Origin: a gamma proteobacterium endosymbiont of Trioza apicalis
Lineage (GTDB): Bacteria > Pseudomonadota > Gammaproteobacteria > Enterobacterales > G022558485
Assembly: GCA_022558485.1 (NCBI GenBank)
Contig: CP066222.1
Span: forward strand, 89,930 to 153,929
DNA: 64,000 nt
Direction of reading: 5' to 3'
The notes under the pieces are model-generated. The model saw nothing but the letters and a program-made list of their open reading frames with translations, was not told the origin of the DNA and did no database searches. Positions 4,082 to 30,545 of this stretch are shown piece by piece. The position numbers and the translations under genes are program-made. Within the stretch, counting starts at the first letter, position 1. Each line of letters begins with the position of its first letter.

Positions 4082-5482
4082 TTAAAAATTAGCACTACCA
4101 GTTGTTCTAGGAAAAGGTATTATATCTCTAATATTTTTTACTCCTGTAATATAAAGAATTAATCTTTCAAAACCCAAACCAAAACCTGAATGAGGAACTG
4201 TTCCATAATTTCTTAAATCTCTATACCACCAATAGGGTTTTTTATTTAAACCTGTTTCTTTAAAGCGTTTATCTAATTTTATTAATCTTTCTTCTCGTTG
4301 AGATCCTCCGATGATTTCCCCTATATTAGGTACTAATATATCCATTGAAGCTACAGTTTTATTATCTTTATTTATACGCATATAAAAAGGTTTAATATCT
4401 TTGGGATAATTTTTTATAATTACAGGTTTTTTAAATTCTATTTCTGTTAAATAATGTTCATGTTCTGAAAATAAATCATTACCCCATAATATTTTATTTT
4501 TAAAGTTTTTTTTACATTTTTTTAAAATATTAATAGCTTCTGTATAATCTATTTGAACAAAATTTGAATCAATAATATTTTTAAGTCTTTTTATAGCCAT
4601 GTTATCTATATATTTATTAAAAAATAACATATCATCATATCTTTTTTCTAATATTTTTTTAAAAATATATTTTAGTAATATTTCAGCTAAATTAATAATA
4701 TCTTGTAATTTGGCAAATGCTATTTCTGGTTCAACCATCCAAAACTCAGCAAGATGTTTACTTGTATTTGATTTTTCTGCTCTAAATGTTGGTCCAAATG
4801 TATAAACTTTTGATAAAGCGCAAGCATAACTTTCACAGTTTAATTGACCAGATACTGTTAAAAATGTTTCTTTCTTAAAAAAATCTTTACTAAAATTTAT
4901 TTTTCCATTTGGAGTATAAGGTATATTATTAAAATCTAATGTTGATACTTTAAACATTTTTCCGGAACCTTCAGTATCATATGTTGTAATTAATGGTGTT
5001 GAAATCCAAAAAAACCCATTTTTATTCATAAATTTATGAATAGCATATGCTGATGTATGTCTTATTCTAGTTATTGCAGAAATTAAATTTGTACGTGGTC
5101 TTAAATGCGCGAATTCACGTAAATATTCAACACTATGTTTTTTTTGTGAAATAGGATAAGTATCTGGGTTTTTAACCCAACCTATAATATTTATTTTTTT
5201 AACTTTAATTTCATAATATTGACCTGGTCCTAATGATTTAATAATTATACCTTTTATTTTAACTGAACAACCACTTGTTAGTTTTAATATATCTCTTTTA
5301 TAATTAGGTATATTATTCTTAACAACAGCTTGTAAGTTATTAAAACAAGATCCATCTTGTAAAATAAGAAATGATAGTCCATTTTTCGAATCTCTTCTTG
5401 TTCGTACCCAACTTTTTATAATTACTTTATTATTAATTGGTATTTTACCTTTTATTATATCATTTATTGATACTATATTCAT
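4082..5482 (-). CDS. asnS: Asparagine--tRNA ligase
   Basis: 466-aa ORF, the same length as E. coli AsnRS. It has class IIb features (GWVRTRR OB-fold N-terminus, [32 protein letters not shown]). Confidence 0.96.
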
Positions 5483-5526
5483 ATAATTCTCTTTTATTTT
5501 ATTAATATTGTATAACTTAATATAAA

Positions 5527-6621
5527 TTATATATTTTTTTTTATTATTTCTGATAAATTATTTATTTGATTACTTTTGTGTTCTTTAATTATATGTTTAA
5601 TTATTATATCTAATTTTCCTTTCATAACTTCTTCTAATTTATATATTGATAAATTAATTCGATGATCAGTTATACGTCCTTGGGGAAAATTATATGTACG
5701 TATACGATCAGATCTCTCTCCACTACCTAACAAATTTTTTTTAATATTTGATTCTTTTTCTTTTTTTTTTTTTAATTCAAACAAATATAATCTTTTTTTT
5801 AAAACTGATAATGCTTTTTTTTTATTTTTATGTTGTGATCTTTCATCTTGACATTCTACTATAATACCAGTAGGTAAATGTGTTACTCTAATAGCTGAAT
5901 CTGTAGTATTTACATGTTGACCACCTGATCCAGAGGAGCGAAAAGTATCAATACGTAAATCTTTTTTATTTATTTCTTTTAATTTAATACTTGGAGCCTC
6001 TGGTATAACTGCTACTGTACAAGTGGATGTATGTATTCTTCCTTGATTTTCTGTTTTTGGAATTCTTTGTACTCTATGACCGCCTGATTCAAATTTAAGT
6101 TTTCCATAAGCTCCTTTATGACAAAATTTAACCATTATTTCTTTATATCCACCTTTTTCATTATTTATAATATTTATTATTTTTATTTTCCAATTTTTTA
6201 TTTCTGCAAAATTATAATACATATTAAATAAATTACTAACAAATAATGATGCTTCATTACCACCAGTTCCAGCTTTTATTTCTAAAAAACAATTATTTTT
6301 ATCTTCAGGTATATTTGGTAATAATAATAATTTAATTTTAATATTTAATTTTTTTTTTTTTTTATATAATATTTTTAATTCTTCTTTTGCTATGTTGTGC
6401 ATTTCTTTATCTTTTAATAATTCTTTTGTTATTTTTATAGTTTGTTTTATACATAACCAATTTTTAAAATAATTATTAATTTTATTTAATTTTGTATAAT
6501 TTTTAAATAATTTATGATAATTTTTATTATTGAAATTTAAATTAGGTTCGTTAATTATATTTTTAATTTTTATATATTTTTTTTGTAATTCTAATAATTT
6601 ATTATATATTATAGATTCCAC
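5527..6621 (-). CDS. prfA: Peptide chain release factor 1
   Basis: 364-aa ORF with the GGQ motif ([16 protein letters not shown]) and an RF1-type PxT tripeptide ([14 protein letters not shown]). It has a GTG start at 6621. Confidence 0.95.
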
Positions 6622-7535
6622 ATGATTACCTTATTATTAATTATAATAAAATTATTTTAAATTATTTAAATTTAATCTATTAACTTAGATATAATCATTA
6701 TATTTAATTTCATTAATTTATTAGATAAATTATTTTTATAATTATCTCTTATTTTAGCAAAATAAATACGCCACCTCTTATATTAATATTTATCTTTTTT
6801 GTTATATATTTTATTATTTTTTTTTTTTTGTTATATTGTTAGTAACATTAACTATTATATTTATTTTTTTTATTATAAAAATTAATGCAATAATTGCATT
6901 ATTTAATTTATTTTTTTTAAATTATTTATTATTAATCTTAATATTTTAATTTTTATATTTTTTTAAATAATTATTATAATAACTCCATTTATTATTTGTT
7001 TTTTTTTAAATAAATACAATATTTTTTTTTGTATAGTATATTGATATTGTAAGTTTAAAAATTGGTTTTTTATATATTTTTTTTATAAATTCTATTTTAT
7101 TTATTAAATTTTAATTTTTAGATTTAATTAATTTATTAATATTATTTAATAATATATTTTGTTTTTATATTAAATTTGTAAATTTATTTTTAGTTATTAA
7201 TATAATCCTATAAATATTAGAATATATTTTATATTTAAATAAAATATGTAATAAATAAATATCACCGGTTCTTTAGGCATGAGTACAGATACAAATTTTA
7301 AAATAGAAATTTTAAATTTTTAATATTATAATTTTTTATTAAATTTCTTGTTAAATAAATTTAATTTTATTAAATTATTTATAATATTTTTAAATTTATA
7401 AATATTTTTTAATTTTATTATATTTTTATAAAAAAAATAGAAAATTAAATAATTTTCATTAATTTTAAATTTTTTTTGTTTAAAAAATTTACAAAATATT
7501 TTATATAAAGAAATTTAAATAAAGTGTTTATTGTA
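6622..7535 (-). pseudogene. alaS: Decayed 3' portion of alaS (editing and C-Ala domains)
   Basis: This 914-bp stretch has no ORF of 60 aa or more on either strand and lies directly downstream of the premature alaS stop. About 315 codons of AlaRS are missing, which fits the length. The minus strand from 7311 to 7201 reads NFYFKICICTHA*RTGDIYLLHILFKYKIYSNIYRII. That is gap-free colinear with the E. coli AlaRS segment [37 protein letters not shown], but it is out of frame with the ORF and contains stop codons. Confidence 0.7.
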
Positions 7536-9218
7536 TTATTTATACTTGGTTTTTTTATTTATAATAGAAATTATTTGCATATTAATTTTTAATTTACCAT
7601 TATTTATTATACCTATATGACATATAGTTTTATTATATTTTTTGGTTTTATTAACTTTAAATGTTGCTGATTTTGATTTAATTTCACCTTTATCACTAAT
7701 TTTACTATTAATTTCAGGAGAAAAAGGTGTTTTATCTAAAATTATTATTGCTTTATCTCCTTTATTAATAATTTTTTTTTTTTCTCCTTTTTTGTTAAAT
7801 AATGCAATTATATATCCTATATGTTTATAATTTTTATAACCTATAAATAAAGGTTTTTTATTTAAATAAAATGAAATATTTTGATTTATTTCTTTTTTTT
7901 TATATATATTAATTTTTTTATTTTTTATATTTAAAAATTTTTTTAAATTTTTAATATCAACATAAATATTTTTTTTTTTACATATTTTTAATGTTAATTT
8001 TAATGGTAAACCATAAGTATCATAAAGAATAAATATAGTTTTTATATCAAGTTTTTTATTATTTAATTTTTTTAATTTATAATTTAATATTGATATACCT
8101 CTTTTTATTGTATAATTAAATTGTTTTTCTTCTTTATATATTACTTGTTTTATAAATTTTTTTTTTAAATTAATTTTATTTTCATCATTATTCATTATAT
8201 TTATTAATGGAGATACTAATTTATAAAAGAAATTGTTTTTAATACCTAAAATATTACCGTATTGAATAGCTCTTCTTATAATTTTTCTTAATACAAAACC
8301 CCGTCCATTATTTGATGGTATAATATCTTCATTAATTAAAAAAGAAGATGCACGAATATGATCAGCTATAACACGTAATGATTTATTATTAATATTATTA
8401 GTTTTTATTATTTCTGCTATCTTAATTATAAGATTTTTAAATATATCAATATCATAATTTGAAGTTACTTTTTGTAAAACAGTAGTTATTCTTTCTAAAC
8501 CCATTCCAGTATCAACTGATGGATTTGGTAATGGTAATAATTTACCATCAATTTGACGATTAAATTGCATAAAAACTAAGTTCCATATTTCAATATATCT
8601 ATTACCGTTATGTTTTATATCTCCAGGTAATGAATCTAAAATATGATCACCATAATCATAAAAAATTTCTGAAGATGGTCCACATGGTCCAGTATTTCCC
8701 ATTTGCCAAAAATTATCTGATGAATTAATATTGTTGTTTTTATCTCCTATACGAATAATTTTTTTTTTAGGTATACCAATTTTATTAGCCCATATATCAT
8801 ATGTTACACTATCTTTATAATATACTGTTACCCATAATTTTTCTGTTGGTATATTAAACCAATTTCTACTAGTGAGTAATTCCCATGCAAATTTTATTGC
8901 ATCATATTTGAAGTAATCACCAAAACTAAAATTTCCTAACATTTCAAAAAAAGTATGATGTCTTGTGGTATAACCAATATTTTTAAAATCATTATGTTTC
9001 CCTCCAGCTCTTATACAATATTGTGACGTTGCAACTCTTTTATATGAATATTTATTGATACCTAAAAATATATTTTTAAATTGATTCATGCCTGAATTTG
9101 TAAATAATAAAGTTTGATCATTTTTAGGTATAAGTGAGCTACCTTTTATTATTTTATGTCCTTTATTATAAAAAAAAGTTAAAAATTTATTTTTAATTTC
9201 ATTAATACTAATTTTCAT
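7536..9218 (-). CDS. alaS: Alanine--tRNA ligase, C-terminally truncated (aminoacylation and tRNA-recognition part only)
   Basis: 560-aa ORF colinear with the E. coli AlaRS N-terminal region (LLFTNSGMNQFK, RAGGKHND, HHTFFEMLGNFSFGDYFK, WNLVFMQFNR, VDTGMGLERI, LRVIADHIR, then the beta-barrel segment DKTPF..SDKGEI..HIG). It ends at a TAA a few codons before where the editing-site HxxxH motif would lie. Confidence 0.9.
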   Translation of the reverse strand: MKISINEIKNKFLTFFYNKGHKIIKGSSLIPKNDQTLLFTNSGMNQFKNIFLGINKYSYKRVATSQYCIRAGGKHNDFKNIGYTTRHHTFFEMLGNFSFGDYFKYDAIKFAWELLTSRNWFNIPTEKLWVTVYYKDSVTYDIWANKIGIPKKKIIRIGDKNNNINSSDNFWQMGNTGPCGPSSEIFYDYGDHILDSLPGDIKHNGNRYIEIWNLVFMQFNRQIDGKLLPLPNPSVDTGMGLERITTVLQKVTSNYDIDIFKNLIIKIAEIIKTNNINNKSLRVIADHIRASSFLINEDIIPSNNGRGFVLRKIIRRAIQYGNILGIKNNFFYKLVSPLINIMNNDENKINLKKKFIKQVIYKEEKQFNYTIKRGISILNYKLKKLNNKKLDIKTIFILYDTYGLPLKLTLKICKKKNIYVDIKNLKKFLNIKNKKINIYKKKEINQNISFYLNKKPLFIGYKNYKHIGYIIALFNKKGEKKKIINKGDKAIIILDKTPFSPEINSKISDKGEIKSKSATFKVNKTKKYNKTICHIGIINNGKLKINMQIISIINKKTKYK

Positions 9219-9390
9219 AAATATCCTTTTACAATAATTTTAATATATATATTTTTTTTATTATAAATATATATTATTATTTTTAATAAAAATCTAAATA
9301 TTAATTATATAATATTTAGAGTTCTATTTATTTATAAATAATTTATATATGTATTATTATAATTTGATTAATAATTTTATTATTAATATT

Positions 9391-9861
9391 TTATTTTTTT
9401 AATATTTTTAATAAATTAATCATTTCTAATGCAGCAAGTGCTGCTTCTGATCCTTTATTCCCTAATTTTGTTCCAGCTCTTTCAATAGCTTGTTCTATAT
9501 TTTTAGTAATTAATATACCTAATGTTATTGGAATTAATGTTTCTATTGAAATTAAAGATAAACCATAACTACATTCTTTTGCTACAAATTTAAAATGAGA
9601 ACTATTACCTTTAATTATAGTTGCTAAAGTTATAATAGCATTATATTTTTTACTTATAGCTAATTTTTTTGCTATTAAAGGTATTTCATAAGCTCCTGGG
9701 ACCCAAATAATTGTAATGTTTTCATCTTTTATTTTACCAATGCGTTTTAATGTATTAATACTTCCATTAAGTAAATTATTATTAATAAAATTGTTAAAAC
9801 GAGATATAATAATAACAATATTAGAATCTGATGTATCTAATGATACTTCAATATTTTTCAT
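9391..9861 (-). CDS. ribH: 6,7-dimethyl-8-ribityllumazine synthase
   Basis: 156-aa ORF with lumazine synthase features (IVISRFN, WVPGAYEIPL, G.TSHF..V, NKG.EAALAALEM). It lies downstream of ribD, as in the E. coli ribD-ribE(ribH) arrangement. Confidence 0.93.
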   Translation of the reverse strand: MKNIEVSLDTSDSNIVIIISRFNNFINNNLLNGSINTLKRIGKIKDENITIIWVPGAYEIPLIAKKLAISKKYNAIITLATIIKGNSSHFKFVAKECSYGLSLISIETLIPITLGILITKNIEQAIERAGTKLGNKGSEAALAALEMINLLKILKK

Positions 9862-9942
9862 TAAAATCCTGAATATTATTTATTATTATTTAATTATTTT
9901 ATTTAAAATTTTATCATATTATTTAATTTAATTTATATATTA

Positions 9943-11064
9943 TTAATATTTAATATTTGGTTTTAAACGAATTCTTATATCTTTTTCTATTTTTTTTATA
10001 TTTTTTATTTTAAAATAAATTGCTTCATTTATTTTTTTTAAATTAGATATTTTAAATAATGGTAGTGTTTTATTTCCTAATAATTTAGGTGCTATATATA
10101 AAATAAATTCATCAATTAATCCATTTGTTAATAATGAGCCTGATAAATTATAACCTGTTTCTATCCAAACATTATTTATTTGTTTTTCTCCTAATTGAAT
10201 CATAAGTAATACTAAATCTAAATTTTTTTTATTTTTTTGTGTAGGTAATATTATTTGTTTTGTTTTTTTGGGCCAAATTAATTTATCTTTTTTTGTTCTT
10301 ATTAACCAAATATTAGTTTTATTTTGTATAATTTTATAGAAAGGTTTTATAAGATTATAATTATCTATGATAATTTTAATAGGTTGACGTAATTTTTTTT
10401 TATAATATATATCTTTAATATTTTTAGTAAGATTTGATCTTTTAATATTTATAGTTGAATTATCTGAAATAATAGTGGTTGAACTTGATAAAATAGCATC
10501 ATTTTCTGCTCTAAAACATTGAACATCTTTACGTGATTTTTTAGAAGTTATCCATTTACTTTCTTTATTTTTCATACCAGTGCAACCATCGATAGATGAA
10601 GCAAGTTTTAATGTTATTTTAGGAAAACCAATACGCATACGTTTTAAAAAACCTATATTTATTTTTTCATTTTTATTTATTATTATATTATTATTTACTA
10701 TAATTTTTTTTTTTTTTAAAAAACTAAATCCATTACCTGATATTTTAGGATTTGGATCTAATATTGATATCACTATTCTTTTTATTCCAAATGATATTAA
10801 CTTATTAATACATGGTGGTGTTTCACCATAATGACTACATGGTTCGAATGTTACATATATTGTTGCATTTTTTGCTTTTTTACCAGCCATATTTAATGCG
10901 TTTATTTCAGCATGAAAATTACCTTTGTTTTGATGATAACCTTCTCCTATAATATAATTATTAATAACTACAATACATCCTACATTAGGATTTGGTGTTG
11001 TTGTAAATTTACCTAAATTTGCAATATTAAATGCATATTTTAAAAAAAATTTATCATATTTCAT
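9943..11064 (-). CDS. ribD: Bifunctional riboflavin biosynthesis protein RibD (deaminase/reductase)
   Basis: 373-aa ORF with a CMP/dCMP-type deaminase zinc motif (HAEINAL...PCSHYG.TPPC) followed by a reductase domain (KLA.S.DG). Confidence 0.93.
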   Translation of the reverse strand: MKYDKFFLKYAFNIANLGKFTTTPNPNVGCIVVINNYIIGEGYHQNKGNFHAEINALNMAGKKAKNATIYVTFEPCSHYGETPPCINKLISFGIKRIVISILDPNPKISGNGFSFLKKKKIIVNNNIIINKNEKINIGFLKRMRIGFPKITLKLASSIDGCTGMKNKESKWITSKKSRKDVQCFRAENDAILSSSTTIISDNSTINIKRSNLTKNIKDIYYKKKLRQPIKIIIDNYNLIKPFYKIIQNKTNIWLIRTKKDKLIWPKKTKQIILPTQKNKKNLDLVLLMIQLGEKQINNVWIETGYNLSGSLLTNGLIDEFILYIAPKLLGNKTLPLFKISNLKKINEAIYFKIKNIKKIEKDIRIRLKPNIKY

Positions 11065-12361: not shown

Positions 12362-15300
12362 ATGTTTATAGTTTATCATTCTAATAAATCGTATATTCTT
12401 AAAGATATAATGATTAATTTAATTAAAAATTTTCCATTACAAAACCCGTTTAAATCTGAAATAATTTTAGTACAAAATAATTATATAAGTCAATGGATAC
12501 AATTAGAAATAACAAATAAATTAGGTATATCAGCTAATATTAATTTCTTATTTCCTCATAATTTTATTTGGAAGATTTTTTTTCAAATATATAATAAAAA
12601 ACATATTAAAAATCCATTTTCAGGATCATTAATAAAATGGAAATTAATGGATATATTAATTTCTTTAAAAGATAAAAAAGAATTTACATTTATTAATGAA
12701 TATTTAAATAATGATTTTAATAAAGAGAAGTGTTTTTATTTTGCATCTATGGTTGTAAATTTGTATAAATGTTATTTGGTTTTTAGGCCTGAGTTGTTGA
12801 TTGATTGGTTATATAATAAAAATTATAAAAATATTAAAAAATCACAATATTGGCAAATTTTATTATGGAAAGAATTAATAAATGAAAATTCAGAAATTAG
12901 TAAATCATTAATTTTTTATTTAAATATTTATAAAAAAATTATAAAAAAAAAAAATAAAAATAATAATTTTTTTTCAAAATTGCCTAAAAGAATTTTTATT
13001 TTTGGAATTTTTGATTTACCTCCTATGTTTTTACAAATATTATATATTTTAAGTTCGTATATTGACATATATTATTTATTTAATAATCCTTGTAAATATT
13101 TTTGGGGAAATTTTTTAAATAATAATTTGAGCCATCATCTATTAAAACATAATAATTATAATTTTTATAAAACAACACGTTTATTTTTTTTTTATAACAA
13201 AAAAAATAAAAATATTAATAATTTATTATTAAATTTTTTAGGTAAACAAATAGAAAATAATTTATATTTATTATCTCAATTTAAAAATATTATAGAAATA
13301 GAAGTTTTTATTAAACCTACTAGTAATTGTTTATTAAATTTATTACAAAAAGATATTTTATTATTAACAAATTCTTCATTAATTAATAAAAAATATTGTT
13401 TAAATATTAAAGATAATTCATTTAGTATAAATATATGTAATGATGAATATCATGAAATTGAAATTTTACATGATAATTTATTATCTATGATAAAAGAAGA
13501 TTCAACATTGAATCTTAATGACATTATTGTAATAATTTCAGATATTAATCGTTATTTACCTAGTATAAAAGCAATATTTGGTGATTATAATAAAAAATAT
13601 TATTTACCTTATACTATTTATAATAGAAATATTTATTATTTTAATGATATAATATCTACTGTTATAAATTTAATTAAATTACCACATATTAAATTTACTG
13701 TTGATGAAATAATTTCATTTTTAGAAATACCATCTTTAGGTTTACGGTTTTTTATTTATGAAAAAGAATTGAATTTATTACGTAAATGTATAATTAATAA
13801 TGGTATATATTGGGGTTTGGATTATGATACGTATTATAAATTTATGTTATCAGATATTGATTTTTGTAATTGGCAGCATGGTTTAAATAATATATTAATG
13901 AAATATATTTTAATTGATGATAATAATGATGATGATCATATATCTTATATAGAATCTGATGAATTTATAAATAATTTAGTTAGTAATTTAATGAATTTTT
14001 TTATAAAATTGCGTTATTGGAGAGATTGGTTATCAAAACCTCGTTATTTAAATTCATGGAAAATGACTATTAATAATATCATTAATAATTTTTTTGTTAT
14101 AAATGATAAAGAAAAAAATATATTTAATTTATTAAATAATGAATGGATAAAAATAATTAAATATGGTTTGCAAATAAAATATAATAAATTAATTTTAATA
14201 ACTTTAATTAAAAAAGAGTTTTTTAAAAAAATAAAAAAAATTAAAAAACATAAAAAATATTCAATTAATAATATTGTTTTTTGTAATTTTTTAGATTTAA
14301 ATCCAATACCTTTTCGCATTGTTTGTTTAATAGGTATGAATACTAAAGATGAATCAATTGATTTATTTAATCAAAATTACAATTTAATGATTAATAACCC
14401 ACGTTTTGGTGATCCTAATAAAAATAATAAAGATAAATATTTATTTTTAAATTCTTTATTATCTGCTCAGCAAAAAATTTATATTAGCTATATTAATGAA
14501 TCTATTAATAATAATATAGTTTATTATCCTTCTGTATTAATAAAAAATTTAATTGATTATATTTTAAATAATTTTATTATTATTAATAATAAAATAAATT
14601 TTTTTTCTGATAAAAAAAATGTTTATAATTTTTTATGCAAAAAACATAATAAAATTCAAAATTTTTTAGATAAATTTTATTTTAAAAAATATTATTTTAT
14701 TTCTAATAATATATTAATTAATAATTTTAATAAAAATGAAAAAATAGATAGTTTTGTAAAAAAACTACCTAAGATTAATTATAAAAAAATATTTTTTAAA
14801 GATCTTTTAAATTTTTATAAGCATCCTGTTAAATTTTGGTTTCAAAAAAGATTAGGTATTTATTTTAAAGATAATATTAATACATCAATTAATGATGAAT
14901 TATTTATTATTAATAATCTTAAAAATTATCAAATAAGTAAAAAATTACTTAATATTGTTATTAATAATAAAAATCCTGAATTATTATATAATTATATGTA
15001 TAAATATGGTCAATTACTTCATAAATCATTTAGTAAAATATATTGGAATAAATTATATAAAATAATTTATAACCTTTCAATTAAAATAAATAAATATAAA
15101 CTTTCTAGTTCTAAAAATTTTGAATTTATATTAAAATTTAATAATATTAAATTAATAGTTGATCTTTTGTTTGTTCAAAATAATGGTTTATTACGTTGGC
15201 AACCTAGATCTTTATCTACAAAAGATGGATTATTATTATGGTTAGAACATTTAGTTTATTGTATTGCTGGTGGTAATGGAAAAAGTAGGATATTCGGAAC

Positions 15301-15670
15301 ATTTGGAGAATGGTGTTTTCCTAATTTATCAATGGATATTGCTAAAGAAAATTTGTTTTTATTTATTTTAGGTTTTCAGAATGGAATTAACAAACCTTTA
15401 TTATTATTAAATCGTTCTGGTGGTTCATGGTTAAATTATTGTTATAATCCTTTAACAAAAAATATTAATTTTAATAAAAATAAACAAATAAAAGCTAAAA
15501 ATAAATTAATTCAATCTTGGCAAGGTAATAATTTTATTTTAGGAGATAAAAATGATCCTTATTTACAAAAAGTAATAAATAAAATTAATAAAAAATATAT
15601 AATTAAAATAATAAACGCAGCTAAATGTTTTTTTTTACCTTTTTATAAATTTAATAAATCTTTTAATTAA
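12362..15670 (+). CDS. recC: Exodeoxyribonuclease V, gamma subunit RecC
   Basis: 1102-aa ORF colinear end-to-end with E. coli RecC (VYHSN, ILVQ....QW.Q, FNNPC.YFWG, DIIV...DI..Y.P.I.A.FG, KYLFL..L.SAQQK.YISYI, GLLRW.P, LWLEHLVYC..GGNG, final LP.Y.FN.S). Confidence 0.93.
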   Translation: MFIVYHSNKSYILKDIMINLIKNFPLQNPFKSEIILVQNNYISQWIQLEITNKLGISANINFLFPHNFIWKIFFQIYNKKHIKNPFSGSLIKWKLMDILISLKDKKEFTFINEYLNNDFNKEKCFYFASMVVNLYKCYLVFRPELLIDWLYNKNYKNIKKSQYWQILLWKELINENSEISKSLIFYLNIYKKIIKKKNKNNNFFSKLPKRIFIFGIFDLPPMFLQILYILSSYIDIYYLFNNPCKYFWGNFLNNNLSHHLLKHNNYNFYKTTRLFFFYNKKNKNINNLLLNFLGKQIENNLYLLSQFKNIIEIEVFIKPTSNCLLNLLQKDILLLTNSSLINKKYCLNIKDNSFSINICNDEYHEIEILHDNLLSMIKEDSTLNLNDIIVIISDINRYLPSIKAIFGDYNKKYYLPYTIYNRNIYYFNDIISTVINLIKLPHIKFTVDEIISFLEIPSLGLRFFIYEKELNLLRKCIINNGIYWGLDYDTYYKFMLSDIDFCNWQHGLNNILMKYILIDDNNDDDHISYIESDEFINNLVSNLMNFFIKLRYWRDWLSKPRYLNSWKMTINNIINNFFVINDKEKNIFNLLNNEWIKIIKYGLQIKYNKLILITLIKKEFFKKIKKIKKHKKYSINNIVFCNFLDLNPIPFRIVCLIGMNTKDESIDLFNQNYNLMINNPRFGDPNKNNKDKYLFLNSLLSAQQKIYISYINESINNNIVYYPSVLIKNLIDYILNNFIIINNKINFFSDKKNVYNFLCKKHNKIQNFLDKFYFKKYYFISNNILINNFNKNEKIDSFVKKLPKINYKKIFFKDLLNFYKHPVKFWFQKRLGIYFKDNINTSINDELFIINNLKNYQISKKLLNIVINNKNPELLYNYMYKYGQLLHKSFSKIYWNKLYKIIYNLSIKINKYKLSSSKNFEFILKFNNIKLIVDLLFVQNNGLLRWQPRSLSTKDGLLLWLEHLVYCIAGGNGKSRIFGTFGEWCFPNLSMDIAKENLFLFILGFQNGINKPLLLLNRSGGSWLNYCYNPLTKNINFNKNKQIKAKNKLIQSWQGNNFILGDKNDPYLQKVINKINKKYIIKIINAAKCFFLPFYKFNKSFN

Positions 15671-18714: not shown

Positions 18715-19329
18715 ATGTTAATTAACAACTTAACAAATAATTTTATTAATTTTTTTAAATTTAAAGATTATAATACAAAAAATAATACTTTATTTGGTTT
18801 TTGGATTTATTTAATGAGTGACTGTATTTTATTTGCTACATTATTTTCTGTATATGTTGTTTTAAAAGATGGAGTAGCATATGGACCAAATATTAAAGAT
18901 ATTTTTAATTTATCATATGTATTAATTGAAACTTTATTGTTATTTTTTAGTAGTATTACATATACATTAGTAATTTTATATTTATATAATAATAATAAAA
19001 AATTAGTTAATATTTGGTTAATTTTAACTTTTTTATTTGGTTTATTATTTTTATTTATGGAAATATATGAATTTATACATTTAATTAATGATGGCTATGG
19101 TCCTAATCGTAGTGGTTTTTTATCAAGTTTTTTTGCTTTATTAGGAACACATGGTTTACATGTTATTTTTGGTCTTATTTGGATCTTAGTGATGATAATG
19201 CATATTAAATTTTATGGAATAAATAAAATTAATAAAATTAGTTTAAAATGTTTAGGTTTATTTTGGCATTTTTTAGATATAATATGGATTTGTTTATTTA
19301 CTATAGTTTATTTAATGGGGGTAGTTTGA
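18715..19329 (+). CDS. cyoC: Cytochrome bo3 ubiquinol oxidase subunit III
   Basis: 204-aa multi-pass membrane ORF following cyoB (FGFWIYLMSDCILFATLF, LLGTHGLHV, LFWHFLDIIWI). Confidence 0.93.
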   Translation: MLINNLTNNFINFFKFKDYNTKNNTLFGFWIYLMSDCILFATLFSVYVVLKDGVAYGPNIKDIFNLSYVLIETLLLFFSSITYTLVILYLYNNNKKLVNIWLILTFLFGLLFLFMEIYEFIHLINDGYGPNRSGFLSSFFALLGTHGLHVIFGLIWILVMIMHIKFYGINKINKISLKCLGLFWHFLDIIWICLFTIVYLMGVV

Positions 19330-19664
19330 TGTTTAATATTATTAAAAAAAAATTTTTTATATTAAATAATATTAAAAAAAAATATTTAATTGGTTTTATT
19401 TTTTCATTTTTTTTAACAATTATACCTTTTTATTTTATTTTTCAAAAAAATTTTTTTAAACCTTGGTTGATAATTGCTATATTATTATTATGCGCTATAA
19501 TACAAATATTTACACATTTAATTTGTTTTTTGCATATTAATAATTCATCAGAACAGAGATGGAATTTAATATCTTTAATATTTTCAACATTAATAATATT
19601 AATTTTAGTTAATGGTACTATATGGATTATGATTCATCTTAATCAAAATTTAATGAAATATTAA
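19329..19664 (+). CDS. cyoD: Cytochrome bo3 ubiquinol oxidase subunit IV
   Basis: 111-aa hydrophobic ORF starting at the ATG that overlaps the cyoC stop (TGATG, 19327-19331). Its size and position match E. coli CyoD (109 aa). The track's start at 19248 lies inside cyoC and is rejected. Confidence 0.85.
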   Translation: MFNIIKKKFFILNNIKKKYLIGFIFSFFLTIIPFYFIFQKNFFKPWLIIAILLLCAIIQIFTHLICFLHINNSSEQRWNLISLIFSTLIILILVNGTIWIMIHLNQNLMKY

Positions 19665-26914: not shown

Positions 26915-28630
26915 TTAATTGATTTTTTTTATTATAAAATTAATTATTTCATTTAATGAAATCAAAATTTTTTTACCATTTTTTCTATTTTTATATTCTA
27001 CTGATTTTTGATTTAAACTACGTTTACTTATTATTATAATGTTTGGGATACCAATCAGTTCAATATCAGATAACATAAGTCCAAATTGTTCTTTTCTATC
27101 ATCAAATAACACATCTAATTTTTTTTCTTTTAATTTATTATAAATATCATTAGATGTTTCGTATATTTTATTAGATTTATACATATTTATAGGCAAAATC
27201 GCAATATTAAATGGAGCTAATGCTTCTGGCCAAATAATTCCATTTTTATCATTATTCTGTTCTATAACAGAAGCTATTGTTCTTAGCAAACCTATTCCAT
27301 AACAACCCATTGTTAATGTTATATTTTTACTGTTTTTATTTTTAAAAGAAGTTTTAAATATTCTTGAATATTTTTTACCAAGTTGAAAAATATGTGCAAT
27401 TTCTATACTTTTTTTTATTTTTAAATAACCTTGATTATCTGGGCTAATATCACCTTTTACTATTTTTCTTAAATCAGCTAATTTAGGCATTGGAATATCT
27501 CTTAACCAATTTATATTTAAAAAAAACTTACCATTTATATTAGCTCCTGATATAAAATTACTCATATTAAAAACATTATAATCAATTATCATGGGAATAG
27601 TTAAATGTATAGGTCCTAAAAAAAAAGATTTAACACCTAAGTATAAATTAATGTTTTTTTCATTAACAAATAAAAGCGGTGAAGATAATTTTAGTAATTT
27701 TTCTACTTTTGATTTATTTAATTTATGATCACCTCTTATTATTAATGCTATAAATTTATATTTAATATTAGGATTAACATATACTATATATATTTTTAAT
27801 GTTTGTTTTATTGGTATTGAGTATTTTAAAATTACATCTTTAAATTTTTCAATATTTTTAATATTTATTAATTTTAATTTTTTATATGACATAGGATTAG
27901 AAAATTTTGGTATTGATGTTTTTGCTAATTCAATATTAGAAATATATTTTGATTTTGTAGAAAAAACAAGGCTTGATTCACCATTATTTGATAATACATG
28001 AAATTCATGAGATTTTACACCACCTATGGAACCAGTATTTGCTTCTACCATATAATATTTTAAATCTATACGTTTAAATATATTTTTATAAATTTTTTGA
28101 ATTATAATATATGTTTTTTGTAATGAAATTTTATCACTATGAAAAGAGTAAGCATCTTTCATTATAAATTCACGAGAACGTATTACACCAAAACGTGGCC
28201 TTATTTCATCACGAAATTTAGTTTGTATTTGATATAAAATTAAAGGCAATTGTTTATAAGAATTAAGTTCATTTTTAATTAAATCAGTTATCATTTCTTC
28301 ATTTGTTGGACTAATTATATAAGATCTAGATTTACGATCTTTAAATTTTATTAATTCAGAACCATATTTAAATAATCTTCCGCTATTTTTCCATAAAGAT
28401 ATAGGTTGTATAACTGGCATTAATATTTCTATTGAATTAATTTTATTCATTTCTTCACGTATAATATTTTTCATTTTTTGTAATATACGTAATCCTGTTG
28501 GCAATAATACATATAATCCTACAGAAACTTGACGAATTATACCAGCTCTTAACATTAATTTATGACTAATAATCTCAGTATCTTTAGGATTTTCTTTAAT
28601 AGTTGAAAGTAAATAATAACTAGTACGCAT
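26915..28630 (-). CDS. proS: Proline--tRNA ligase
   Basis: From the ATG at 28630 the protein is 571 aa, beginning MRTSYYLLSTIKENP, against E. coli MRTSQYLLSTLKETP (572 aa). The track's start at 28702 adds 24 residues that overlap recD and is rejected. Confidence 0.95.
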   Translation of the reverse strand: MRTSYYLLSTIKENPKDTEIISHKLMLRAGIIRQVSVGLYVLLPTGLRILQKMKNIIREEMNKINSIEILMPVIQPISLWKNSGRLFKYGSELIKFKDRKSRSYIISPTNEEMITDLIKNELNSYKQLPLILYQIQTKFRDEIRPRFGVIRSREFIMKDAYSFHSDKISLQKTYIIIQKIYKNIFKRIDLKYYMVEANTGSIGGVKSHEFHVLSNNGESSLVFSTKSKYISNIELAKTSIPKFSNPMSYKKLKLINIKNIEKFKDVILKYSIPIKQTLKIYIVYVNPNIKYKFIALIIRGDHKLNKSKVEKLLKLSSPLLFVNEKNINLYLGVKSFFLGPIHLTIPMIIDYNVFNMSNFISGANINGKFFLNINWLRDIPMPKLADLRKIVKGDISPDNQGYLKIKKSIEIAHIFQLGKKYSRIFKTSFKNKNSKNITLTMGCYGIGLLRTIASVIEQNNDKNGIIWPEALAPFNIAILPINMYKSNKIYETSNDIYNKLKEKKLDVLFDDRKEQFGLMLSDIELIGIPNIIIISKRSLNQKSVEYKNRKNGKKILISLNEIINFIIKKIN

Positions 28631-28652
28631 ATTATTTTTTTCCATATAATAT

Positions 28653-30545
28653 TTAAATAGATAACATTTCAATGCGTTTAATAAGACCACTATATTTTTC
28701 AATATTGTTATTAATTAAATATTTTATAATTTTTTCATTTGCACATATAGATAATAGTGTTTTACTTCTTGTTACAGCAGTATATAAAAGTTCTTTATTT
28801 AATATTGGTAAAATTTTATTTGGTAAAATTAGTGCTATATGATTAAATTCTGAACCTTGTGATTTATGTATGGTTATTGCAAATGATGTTTCATGTTTTG
28901 GTAGTTTACTATATGGAATTGAAATAATATTATTATTAAAAGAATTAAAATATGCAAATAATTCGTTTTTGTTGTTTTTTAATAAAATTCCAATATCTCC
29001 GTTGTATAAATTTAAATGAGGTGAATTACGAATTATCATAATAGGACGACCAATATAATTGTTTTTATTTTCAATTATTTTAATTAAACCTTTATTTTTA
29101 AGAATATTTTCTATATATTGATTTAAACCAATTACACCGAAAGGACCCTTACGTAACGCACATAATAATTGAAATTTTTTAAACATTTTTAATATCATAA
29201 ATGGTTTGGATTTATTAATTATTAATTTAATATATTTTTTATATTCATGTATACATATATTAATAAATTTATTATAATCTAATTCACTTTTAAATGAAAT
29301 ATAATTTATTTCTGATTTTTTATTTTTTTTTAAAAATTTAATTATATTATTGGCACAACCAATATTTATTATTTTAGATAAATAACTAATTTTAGATTTT
29401 AAATTAAAACGATAATTTTTATTTAAAATACATAAATTATCCATAATATTAAATATATTATTTTTAATATATATATTATTTTTTATTTCTTTTTTTTTAA
29501 TTTTATTTAAATGTTTATATCCACTTATTGTTTTTAATAATTTTTTTTGTTTATTACTATAATTAAATTTGTAAAATTTATAAATATCTTTTATAATTAA
29601 TCCAGGACCTATAGGTGGTAATTGATAAAAATCACCTAAAAATATAATTTTAATTTTTTTTGGTAATATTTTTATTAAATCAACCATTATTTTTAAATTT
29701 ATCATAGAAGATTCATCAATAATTAATATATCAAATTTTAATAAATTAATTCTATTATTATACATATTTTCATTATAATTTATTTTTAATAAACTATGTA
29801 ATGTTACAGCTTTAGTTGGTAAGCAATTTTGTTGTTTTTTATTTAATTTTAATTTTTTTACACCCAACCATAAAGATTCAATTAATTTTACAGCAGCTTT
29901 TCCTGTAAGTGCTACCATTTTAATTTTTAATCTATTATTATTTAATTTTATAAGTATTATTAATAATTTTGTTATTATAAAAGTTTTACCTGTTCCCGGT
30001 TCACCAGATATAAATGTTATGGGATTTAATATAGCAATTATAATAGCACATTTCTGCCAATTTATATTTTTATATTTTTCTATAGGAAAATAATAATTTA
30101 CTAATTTTTTTATTTTTTTTATATAATTTTTATTTAAAATATTTTTATATTTTGAAAAATATAAAATATAGTTCGCAACTATACATTCATATTTCCAAAT
30201 TTTTTGTAAATATAAATTATTATATTCTAATATTAATGGTGTTTTTTTTTTACCATTACTAACTATTGAAGAATTAATTAACAAATTTATCCAATCTTTA
30301 ATATTAGGATTACCTAAACGTTTCCAAATTTTTTTAGCAAATAAATATAAATAACCATTAAAAATATTTATATATGTTAATGATTTTAAAGGTAAACAAG
30401 TACTTCCTCTCCTAATATTTATATTTAAAAAAACTATAATAATCATTAACATAGGTTGATTTGGTGAAATTAACATACGTGCCATTATTATATCAATTTT
30501 TTTACATAAATAAAATTTATATATTTTATTAAAAATATCTTCCAT
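28653..30545 (-). CDS. recD: Exodeoxyribonuclease V, alpha subunit RecD
   Basis: 630-aa ORF colinear with E. coli RecD: Walker A GEPGTGKT, IIDESSM, FLGD..QLP, QLLCALR.GPFGV.GLN, TIHKSQGSEF, LLYTAVTR. Confidence 0.9.
   Translation of the reverse strand: MEDIFNKIYKFYLCKKIDIIMARMLISPNQPMLMIIIVFLNINIRRGSTCLPLKSLTYINIFNGYLYLFAKKIWKRLGNPNIKDWINLLINSSIVSNGKKKTPLILEYNNLYLQKIWKYECIVANYILYFSKYKNILNKNYIKKIKKLVNYYFPIEKYKNINWQKCAIIIAILNPITFISGEPGTGKTFIITKLLIILIKLNNNRLKIKMVALTGKAAVKLIESLWLGVKKLKLNKKQQNCLPTKAVTLHSLLKINYNENMYNNRINLLKFDILIIDESSMINLKIMVDLIKILPKKIKIIFLGDFYQLPPIGPGLIIKDIYKFYKFNYSNKQKKLLKTISGYKHLNKIKKKEIKNNIYIKNNIFNIMDNLCILNKNYRFNLKSKISYLSKIINIGCANNIIKFLKKNKKSEINYISFKSELDYNKFINICIHEYKKYIKLIINKSKPFMILKMFKKFQLLCALRKGPFGVIGLNQYIENILKNKGLIKIIENKNNYIGRPIMIIRNSPHLNLYNGDIGILLKNNKNELFAYFNSFNNNIISIPYSKLPKHETSFAITIHKSQGSEFNHIALILPNKILPILNKELLYTAVTRSKTLLSICANEKIIKYLINNNIEKYSGLIKRIEMLSI

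Follow-up and report, generated by a model that had tools for sequence, protein, structure and literature searches.

The alaS gene of a psyllid co-symbiont

We examined a 64,000 nt stretch of DNA (termed the window) that spans positions 89,930 to 153,929 of the forward strand of contig CP066222.1 and belongs to the gammaproteobacterial endosymbiont of the carrot psyllid Trioza apicalis. This co-symbiont has been given the name 'Candidatus Triozidicola socius' (PMC12592730). Its genome comprises 253,271 bp with 223 protein genes and 20.4% GC, and was sequenced at 6000x coverage (Thompson et al., 2025; PMC11842425). The organism thus combines a strongly reduced genome with obligate host restriction. 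The gene of interest is alaS, which codes for alanyl-tRNA synthetase (AlaRS). On the minus strand of the window, the alaS open reading frame (ORF) terminates after 560 codons, and a spacer separates its stop codon from the start of prfA. A reading of this locus made without database searches (the sequence-only reading) had proposed that the synthetic half of AlaRS is intact in this ORF, and that the editing domain and C-Ala are eroding in the DNA downstream. Neither alaS nor its truncation is mentioned by Thompson et al. (2025; PMC11842425), and the main text of that paper does not treat aminoacyl-tRNA synthetases (aaRSs).

Our analysis bears out the proposal that the synthetic half of the gene is intact. 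Specifically, a Pfam scan of the 560 aa product detected tRNA-synt_2c alone, matched over model positions 1-551 of 552 (E=9e-185; 615.8 bits against a cut-off of 30.3). When aligned by BLASTP with the AlaRS of E. coli K-12 (NC_000913), the product shows 51% identity across residues 1-559, interrupted by one gap of a single residue, and the motifs that form the catalytic and amino acid pocket (RAGGKHND, HHTFFEMLGNFSFGDYF, WN-x-VFMQFNR and SVDTGMGLER) are all present, including the pocket Asp of SVDTGMG. Two E. coli residues, N303 and D400, have been named as the readers of the G3:U70 base pair (PMC10036535), and both are conserved in the ORF within PSN (301-303) and LYDTYG, respectively. We also selected the N-terminal alignment columns in which 100 full-length AlaRS sequences show conservation of at least 90%. 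The ORF keeps 87 of these 92 columns, as does the Psyllophila protein, with 91 kept in Westeberhardia and 90 in Annandia. Furthermore, the ORF matches the E. coli AlaRS441 crystal construct (PDB 3HXU) end to end (E=2.6e-178). When GTDB genomes were scanned with the ORF, the AlaRS loci among the matches listed were all distant, at 53% identity or less.

The codon that closes the ORF is TAA, which terminates 49 of the 51 ORFs in the window and therefore can be taken as a genuine stop. Its placement relative to the E. coli enzyme varies slightly with the position of a 4-codon gap: the stop aligns with I560 when MAFFT is used, and with H564 when a tblastn alignment is anchored downstream. The earlier statement that the ORF ends a few codons before the HxxxH motif of the editing site agrees with the first of these alignments and not with the second, in which the stop takes the place of the first His itself. 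Under either alignment this His is not encoded by the ORF. The same Pfam scan found neither tRNA_SAD nor DHHA1 in the 560 aa product, so a complete editing core is not already contained in it. An editing core with HxxxH and CxxxH in the same polypeptide is absent; traces of these motifs persist only behind stop codons. The C-Ala domain, with its helical part and its DHHA1-like globular part, is likewise missing from the ORF, and E. coli residues 700 to about 826 have a counterpart only in the stop-bearing sequence described below.

A decayed remnant downstream of the stop

The spacer from the ORF stop to the prfA start (6622-7535) is 914 bp long, and its GC content is 8.5% compared with 19.1% for the ORF. 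No ORF longer than 37 aa was found in the spacer on either strand, which agrees with the earlier observation that it holds none of 60 aa or more, and the one of 37 aa lies on the strand opposite to alaS. An Rfam scan of the window returned tRNAs only and left the spacer empty.

To this spacer we compared the C-terminal halves of full-length relatives by using tblastn. Five of the six queries matched, with scores of 63.5, 62.0, 52.4, 43.5 and 40.0 bits, and the sixth (P0007) gave no match to the spacer. The top scores for 500 dinucleotide-preserving shuffles of the spacer were 19-25 bits. In a composition-corrected search of the entire 64 kb window, E. coli AlaRS residues 660-735 matched positions 7311-7084 (E=1.5e-7), and Westeberhardia residues 652-732 matched 7311-7069 (E=5.4e-9).

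The matches allow the spacer to be divided into segments (Table 1). The high-scoring segment pairs run uninterrupted across the alaS stop to 7356, and in this first segment (A) only H568 of the HxxxH motif is recognizable, behind the stop. The second segment (B) completes the editing core and continues through the helical subdomain of C-Ala into its globular subdomain, of which it holds the start. Between the two lies a junction that is 61 nt shorter than its E. coli counterpart but just 7 nt shorter than that of Psyllophila, where 18 residues have been deleted, and it is this 7 nt difference that shifts the frame. The relic of the CxxxH motif falls within segment B. Its two E. coli counterparts, C666 and H670, are invariant in the AlaRS alignment, and the adjoining RTGDI is also recognizable, such that the relic can be followed as C-x3-H-x2-RTGDI. 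A third segment (C) is tentative, as it is a weak, short and low-complexity match in tblastn (82% identity over 11 aa, E=0.16). No significant tblastn match was obtained for positions 6622-6787. In total, the relic carries nine TAA codons across two reading frames when the ORF terminator is included, and it has at least one frameshift; another is possible.

The sequence-only reading had recognized part of this remnant. The peptide that it quoted from the minus strand between 7311 and 7201 is an exact translation, and reads NFYFKICICTHA, followed by an in-frame TAA and then RTGDIYLLHILFKYKIYSNIYRII. That reading was correct in that a remnant of the editing domain is present, since its similarity exceeds that of the shuffled controls. 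The remnant is not confined to the Cys/His segment, however, but occupies nearly the whole spacer and includes C-Ala.

Table 1. Coordinates of the alaS ORF and of the segments of the downstream relic in the window, with GC contents of the parts compared.
Feature	Position	Strand	Description
alaS ORF	7536-9218	minus	560 codons plus TAA; catalytic domain, tRNA-recognition domain and beta-barrel; a 'mini-AlaRS' without editing core or C-Ala
Terminating TAA	7536-7538	minus	E. coli position 560-564, at or up to 4 codons before the first His of HxxxH
Relic segment A	7356-7535	minus	the ORF's own frame; E. coli AlaRS 560-624, start of editing core; one further TAA at 7517; 4.4% GC
A/B junction	7336-7355	minus	20 nt; point of frame shift
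Relic segment B	6817-7335	minus	shifted frame; E. coli AlaRS 652 to about 826; seven in-frame TAA; 8.9% GC
CxxxH relic (zinc/catalytic)	7279-7293	minus	CICTH for E. coli C666-GGT-H670; TAA two codons on
Length-polymorphic poly-A/T run	6827-6829		where the frame changes from B to C; assemblies differ here by 1-3 bases
Relic segment C (tentative)	6788-6820	minus	third frame; KIIKYITKKIN against KIIKNITKQIN of Westeberhardia AlaRS 823-833, just ahead of the C-Ala GGKGGG
Remainder of spacer	6622-6787		up to the prfA start; former alaS end or old intergenic DNA
ORF codons 1-440			20.2% GC
ORF codons 441-560			15.6% GC
Relic tail	6816-6622		11.3% GC
Other intergenic DNA			5.9% GC
Third codon positions of alaS ORF			6.4% GC

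The decay of the relic is evident from its content as well as from its stops. When its conceptual translation was compared with 24,736 Pfam models, tRNA_SAD alone was returned, and only weakly (E=0.049; 14.1 bits, below the gathering cut-off). Among 22 conserved columns of the editing core, the relic keeps 11, whereas 17 are kept in Psyllophila (Q584 being lost) and 21 in Westeberhardia. The base composition of the relic is drifting toward the neutral, intergenic value of the genome. Approximately 720 bp of the spacer (6817-7535, the 20 nt junction included) are therefore a colinear remnant of the editing core and of most of C-Ala. The remnant has the properties of a unitary pseudogene formed in situ: colinearity beyond chance, the expected place and length, disabling lesions and a neutral type of evolution. 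These findings confirm the earlier proposal that both domains are eroding.

The same locus is represented in three Logan assemblies made from separate SRA runs (SRR31451001, SRR31450995 and SRR31451005), with contigs that are 99.88-99.91% identical to the window over 9.5-19 kb. All three (L081, L082 and L084) contain the same stop, the same relic and an identical 560 aa protein. The earlier concern that the stop and the frame disruptions might be errors of assembly is answered by these data, and the truncated state is real and fixed in the species.

Differences among the assemblies also reveal how the two parts of the locus evolve. The window and two of the Logan assemblies were aligned over 16.6 kb, and 24 variant events were counted. 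Coding DNA holds 13 of these in approximately 14.3 kb (0.9/kb) and other intergenic DNA holds five in 1.4 kb (3.6/kb). The remaining six fall in the 914 bp spacer (6.6/kb), which is about sevenfold the coding density and an excess for its length (P=0.0016). In contrast, the alaS ORF has one variant in 1683 bp, at position 7720, a density one tenth of that of the relic. As the proteins encoded by the Logan genes are identical to that of the window, the variant is synonymous. The contrast in variant density indicates that the relic evolves as unconstrained DNA and the ORF as a constrained gene. Separately, we note that the lengths of A/T homopolymer runs at 7007 and 6827-6829 differ between the GenBank and Logan assemblies, and that at site 6752 three assemblies carry three different bases.

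Graded erosion of AlaRS in related symbionts

The sequence-only reading had called for a comparison with related symbionts, and in these the gene is full length but its editing core is eroded. AlaRS has 850 aa in the Psyllophila symbiont of Cacopsylla melanoneura, 857 aa in PSpicST2 and 835 aa in both PC38 and PSpyr. The co-symbiont of Anomoneura mori has a protein of 866 aa, and that of Westeberhardia has 869 aa. Since all of these relatives carry full-length alaS, the stop is specific to the Trioza apicalis lineage.

Signs of erosion are distributed throughout the psyllid symbionts. The DHHA1 signal is undetectable by Pfam in every related psyllid-symbiont AlaRS, and the tRNA_SAD signal is also gone in both proteins of 835 aa. 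From their beta-barrels, all psyllid symbionts (the Trioza apicalis ORF included) have lost ESGGQ (E. coli 503-505), a glycine-rich motif that adjoins the editing site in the structures of AlaX-M and AlaRS. Furthermore, the editing cores of psyllid symbionts have deletions of 4, 18 or 30 residues around E. coli positions 640-657, and it is there that the relic, too, has its gap. The distance from HxxxH to CxxxH is 92-113 residues, with a mode of 103, in the 136 full-length AlaRS proteins in which both motifs were found, apart from one outlier at 283 and the three Psyllophila proteins of this set, at 85. Even in an intact Psyllophila alaS (locus L087, 6001-8553), the 3' part of the gene has a GC content of 11.5% compared with 19.3% for the 5' part.

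In the Trioza apicalis symbiont, alaS lies within tgt-ribD-ribH-alaS-prfA-asnS-def, and a distance of about 7 kb separates it from rplM-rpsI (window 4082-11064; the neighbouring protein identifiers are UNB92361 for asnS, UNB92362 for prfA and UNB92364 for ribH). The order in Psyllophila (CP092142) is bioD-bioB-bioA-alaS-rplM-rpsI, and thus the alaS neighbourhood is not conserved between the two.

Additional truncations of this kind were sought among database proteins. A database of 1.84 billion proteins was searched with the ORF, and its 150 best-scoring cluster representatives include no further AlaRS that is genuinely short. The short proteins that do occur among these representatives were considered as further natural truncations and rejected, as they are contig-end fragments, chimeric calls or genes split by a frameshift, and in the last case an ORF with tRNA_SAD and DHHA1 follows. 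A homologue search with the C-terminal 294 aa of the Psyllophila protein yielded nothing that scored; the query is rich in Lys, Asn and Ile (K/N/I-rich) and drew 8000 low-complexity candidates. An attempt to date the truncation from the identity of the relic was also uninformative, because the identity of the relic to intact homologues (33-37%) equals the level among these homologues themselves.

Origin and consequences of the truncated enzyme

The features of the ORF and of its relic, together with the state of alaS in related symbionts, make it very likely that this alaS has kept its charging half and has lost its editing core and C-Ala by a nonsense mutation at the end of a slow decay. In the sequence of events that we favor, selection on AlaRS proofreading and on C-Ala would have been relaxed already in the common ancestor of the symbiont clade, as the sequences of its members suggest. 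The gene would then have been shortened to its first 560 codons by a nonsense mutation where the editing core begins. Given the eroded editing cores of the related psyllid symbionts, the stop codon would represent the endpoint of this clade-wide relaxation and would have concluded a slow decay instead of marking an abrupt loss. The 560 aa product, judged by its conserved residues and by analogy with known AlaRS fragments, would be a working and probably monomeric AlaRS that needs only the acceptor stem to charge tRNA-Ala. The mischarging expected of such an enzyme would, as the sequence-only reading had predicted, be either tolerated or relieved in trans.

Several observations weigh against this interpretation or limit its reach. 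HxxxH and CxxxH are intact in all of the full-length relatives, which may still be capable of editing. A shared K/N/I-rich composition raises the similarity among AT-rich symbiont sequences. The function of the 560 aa product is predicted from conservation, and none of the seven tRNAs of the window is tRNA-Ala, the tRNA expected to carry the G3:U70 identity pair. The absence of AlaX and Dtd beyond these 64 kb of the 253 kb genome rests on the summary table of the published paper. Finally, four other aaRS genes are reportedly missing from the genome, which weakens the argument that the organism's own alaS must work, and any outside help with tRNA charging makes imported editing factors conceivable.

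The missing synthetases are documented in the published gene inventory of CP066222 (a supplementary table of 223 genes), in which 18 aaRS genes are present and argS, cysS, glnS and thrS are not (PMC11842425). With these four genes gone, the symbiont cannot charge every tRNA with its own enzymes, and part of its charging must rely on outside help that is already in place. We also note that gatCAB is not in this inventory either.

This dependence bears on the strongest alternative, which accepts the truncation and is a variant of the reading favored above. The shortened enzyme would charge tRNA-Ala, and Ser-tRNA-Ala as well as Gly-tRNA-Ala would be removed in trans by a factor whose gene is not in the window, either by the product of a gene elsewhere in the symbiont genome or by a delivered host deacylase of the AlaX/AARSD1 or Dtd type. 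The four absent aaRS genes imply that import of translation factors or other outside help must occur, and trans arrangements are known to arise, as Portiera of whiteflies keeps the editing half of the gene (alaXp) even without the charging half. Yet no gene for such a factor is apparent. The ORFs of the window contain no AlaX, YbaK or Dtd domain and no free-standing ORF of the AlaX type, and a composition-corrected search of the 64 kb window revealed no second alaS and no AlaRS C-terminal half elsewhere. To our knowledge, Enterobacterales of the E. coli type do not normally carry AlaX. For the genome outside the window, absence rests on the published inventory, which lists one alaS and does not list AlaX, Dtd or YbaK (PMC11842425). 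A second alaS or an AlaX protein, either of which had been put forward as grounds for abandoning the sequence-only reading, was therefore found in neither place. We regard clearance in trans as unlikely, though it is the most serious of the alternatives.

We also considered ways in which the loss of proofreading could be offset or explained within the cell. In the AlaRS of Methylomonas, the L219M substitution abolishes misactivation of Ser by way of Val204 (PMC12143591). Compensation by this fidelity switch was rejected for the symbiont, since the ORF still has the corresponding Leu, within LPNPS, and Val, within WNLVF, both in the ancestral state. A genome-wide removal of editing domains was rejected as well. 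Among the other synthetases of the window, IleRS (938 aa) keeps all of the CP1 editing residues that were checked (T241-243, T246, N250, H333 and D342), and in ProRS (proS, 26915-28702, minus strand) K279 is retained along with the INS editing domain, which matches Pfam tRNA_edit at 50 bits. Because both of these enzymes keep their editing domains, the loss in AlaRS is not part of a blanket removal. In ProRS a Phe replaces the His found at E. coli H369, and the stretch corresponding to E. coli 331-335, which presumably lies in or beside the GxxxP loop, is diverged; on these sequence grounds its proofreading may also be weakened.

If neither trans-acting factors nor active-site changes make up for the lost domains, the whole proteome of the symbiont would be translated with an AlaRS that has no proofreading in cis or in trans and no compensation in its active site. 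We advance this wider proposal tentatively, and consider it possible but somewhat doubtful.

A second alternative holds that the entire alaS locus is dead or dying, such that the ORF is the part of a pseudogene that has not yet been disrupted and AlaRS is imported. A fifth loss of a synthetase would fit the trend in the published inventory, and the charging half of alaS is gone from strains of Portiera. The ORF, however, has remained free of stops over 560 codons despite the same time for decay as the relic, and the two differ in their constraint: 87 of 92 conserved columns are kept compared with 11 of 22, GC content is 19% compared with 8.5%, and the variant density of the ORF is one tenth of that of the relic, with its sole variant synonymous. 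This explanation is accordingly very improbable.

The remaining alternatives carry almost no weight. An artefact of sequencing or assembly that conceals a full-length gene might be suspected from the 8.5% GC, the long A/T runs and the differences in homopolymer length at 7007 and 6827-6829, and for two other short AlaRS entries of the database the gene turned out to be split by a frameshift in an assembly of low coverage; but nine TAA codons over 600 bp and a frameshift agree in four independent assemblies made from different read sets, the GenBank assembly has 6000x coverage, and half of the conserved editing-core residues have been replaced. That the relic is a chance resemblance arising from AT-rich composition, with the C-terminal half simply deleted, is just as remote: K/N/I-rich translations do match AT-rich symbiont proteins easily, spurious low-scoring matches were seen in other frames and the tRNA_SAD match is below threshold, but 63.5 bits stand against a maximum of 25 in the shuffles, the E. 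coli query that matched in the whole-window search is not AT-rich, the matches are colinear, in gene order and start exactly at the stop, and the 914 bp of the spacer match the roughly 880 bp by which the ORF falls short of a gene of the Psyllophila type.

Some other features of the window can be recorded here. The proS ORF as listed begins with TTG and overlaps the end of recD (28653-30545, minus strand) by 50 nt, and the ProRS profile match starts at residue 25; the true start is probably an internal ATG without recD overlap. Large recombination and repair genes are kept in this 253 kb genome, which is without cell-wall genes: RecC (1102 aa; 12362-15670, plus strand), RecD (630 aa) and the Rep helicase (643 aa). 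A cytochrome o oxidase operon is also kept. As listed, its ORFs for subunits III (18715-19329, plus strand) and IV (19248-19664, plus strand) overlap by 82 nt, probably an issue of start-codon assignment rather than a real overlap.

An AlaRS that consists of the charging half does have natural and engineered counterparts, each of which differs from the symbiont gene. The E. coli N-terminal fragments 461N and AlaRS441, the latter covered over its full length by the ORF, are engineered, whereas the ORF is natural and about 100 residues longer, extending through the beta-barrel. The 461N fragment of the Schimmel laboratory is reportedly active in aminoacylation. AlaRS441 is active too, and the match of the ORF to such fragments supports the view that the N-terminal part suffices for aminoacylation. 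The closest natural case is the mini-AlaRS of Tupanvirus (TuAlaRS, 461 aa), which likewise lacks an editing domain and C-Ala, charges both tRNA-Ala and an acceptor-stem microhelix, and can replace yeast AlaRS (Antika et al., 2023; PMC10036535). Unlike the symbiont ORF, TuAlaRS is viral and of eukaryote-like origin, is 100 residues shorter and has no beta-barrel. It has also lost the conserved Asn and Asp that read G3:U70, both of which the ORF keeps; no relic of its lost domains has been described, and its host supplies a full AlaRS.

In 'Ca. Portiera aleyrodidarum', also an insect endosymbiont with a tiny genome, alaS is likewise broken between its charging and editing parts (Santos-Garcia et al., 2015; PMC5322561). 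Portiera of A. dispersus has both halves as separate genes, and Portiera of Bemisia and Trialeurodes has only the editing half (alaXp), the charging half being lost (PMC5322561). These whitefly symbionts are thus the mirror image of Triozidicola, which keeps the charging half and has the editing half as a pseudogene. The psyllid co-symbionts Psyllophila and that of Anomoneura mori are nearer in kind, as they share the host type, a genome size of 221-237 kb, the eroded GGQ motif, the site of editing-core deletion and the loss of DHHA1, but their genes are still open (835-866 aa) and retain HxxxH and CxxxH. The local order in Psyllophila, bioA-alaS-rplM, differs from ribH-alaS-prfA in Triozidicola.

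The sequence-only reading had stated that AlaRS editing is almost universally retained, which overstates the case in view of the Tupanvirus enzyme and of the losses documented in host-restricted bacteria. As presented in reviews, loss of aaRS editing in such bacteria and in parasites is an established generalization (Melnikov et al., 2018), and the tested examples that those reviews name are point mutations or deletions in LeuRS, PheRS and ThrRS (Mycoplasma; Li et al., 2011). The cause presumed in those accounts, relaxed selection and genome erosion during intracellular life with a predicted 'statistical proteome', is presumed for the present case as well. Triozidicola differs from the LeuRS, PheRS and ThrRS examples they give in that the whole AlaRS editing core and C-Ala are gone while the decaying DNA is still present. 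The locus is therefore a clear bacterial example in which decay has been caught in progress; it is not unprecedented, and the general picture is unchanged.

The particular interest of this example derives from the enzyme concerned. Free-standing AlaX serves as a back-up in all domains of life, an editing-site mutation in AlaRS slows the growth of E. coli at high temperature, and mild defects of AlaRS editing lead to neurodegeneration in mice (PMC10036535, PMC12143591 and review). AlaRS proofreading is therefore usually regarded as indispensable, and it is the one proofreading activity for which mild impairment does harm in organisms that range from E. coli to mice. If the tentative proposal of translation without any AlaRS proofreading is true, the symbiont would be a natural bacterial model of constitutive mistranslation of Ala codons with Ser or Gly. 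In that case the symbiont and its relatives would also form a graded natural series for the need of AlaRS editing and of C-Ala, which would lead from the intact enzyme of Westeberhardia through the increasingly eroded intermediates of the A. mori symbiont, Psyllophila melanoneura and picta, and Psyllophila pyri and pyricola to the truncated enzyme of Triozidicola. Read together, the decayed DNA of Triozidicola and the stepwise erosion seen in sister symbionts preserve an order of events that is rarely retained. The bacterium has discarded the whole editing core together with C-Ala, the main tRNA-binding domain, and has kept a well-conserved catalytic half with no substitute apparent in the window or in the published inventory. 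The locus thus offers a concrete, sequenced test case for the need of C-Ala for charging in vivo, and for how far translation quality control can erode as endosymbiont genomes near a 'tipping point' of about 200 kb.

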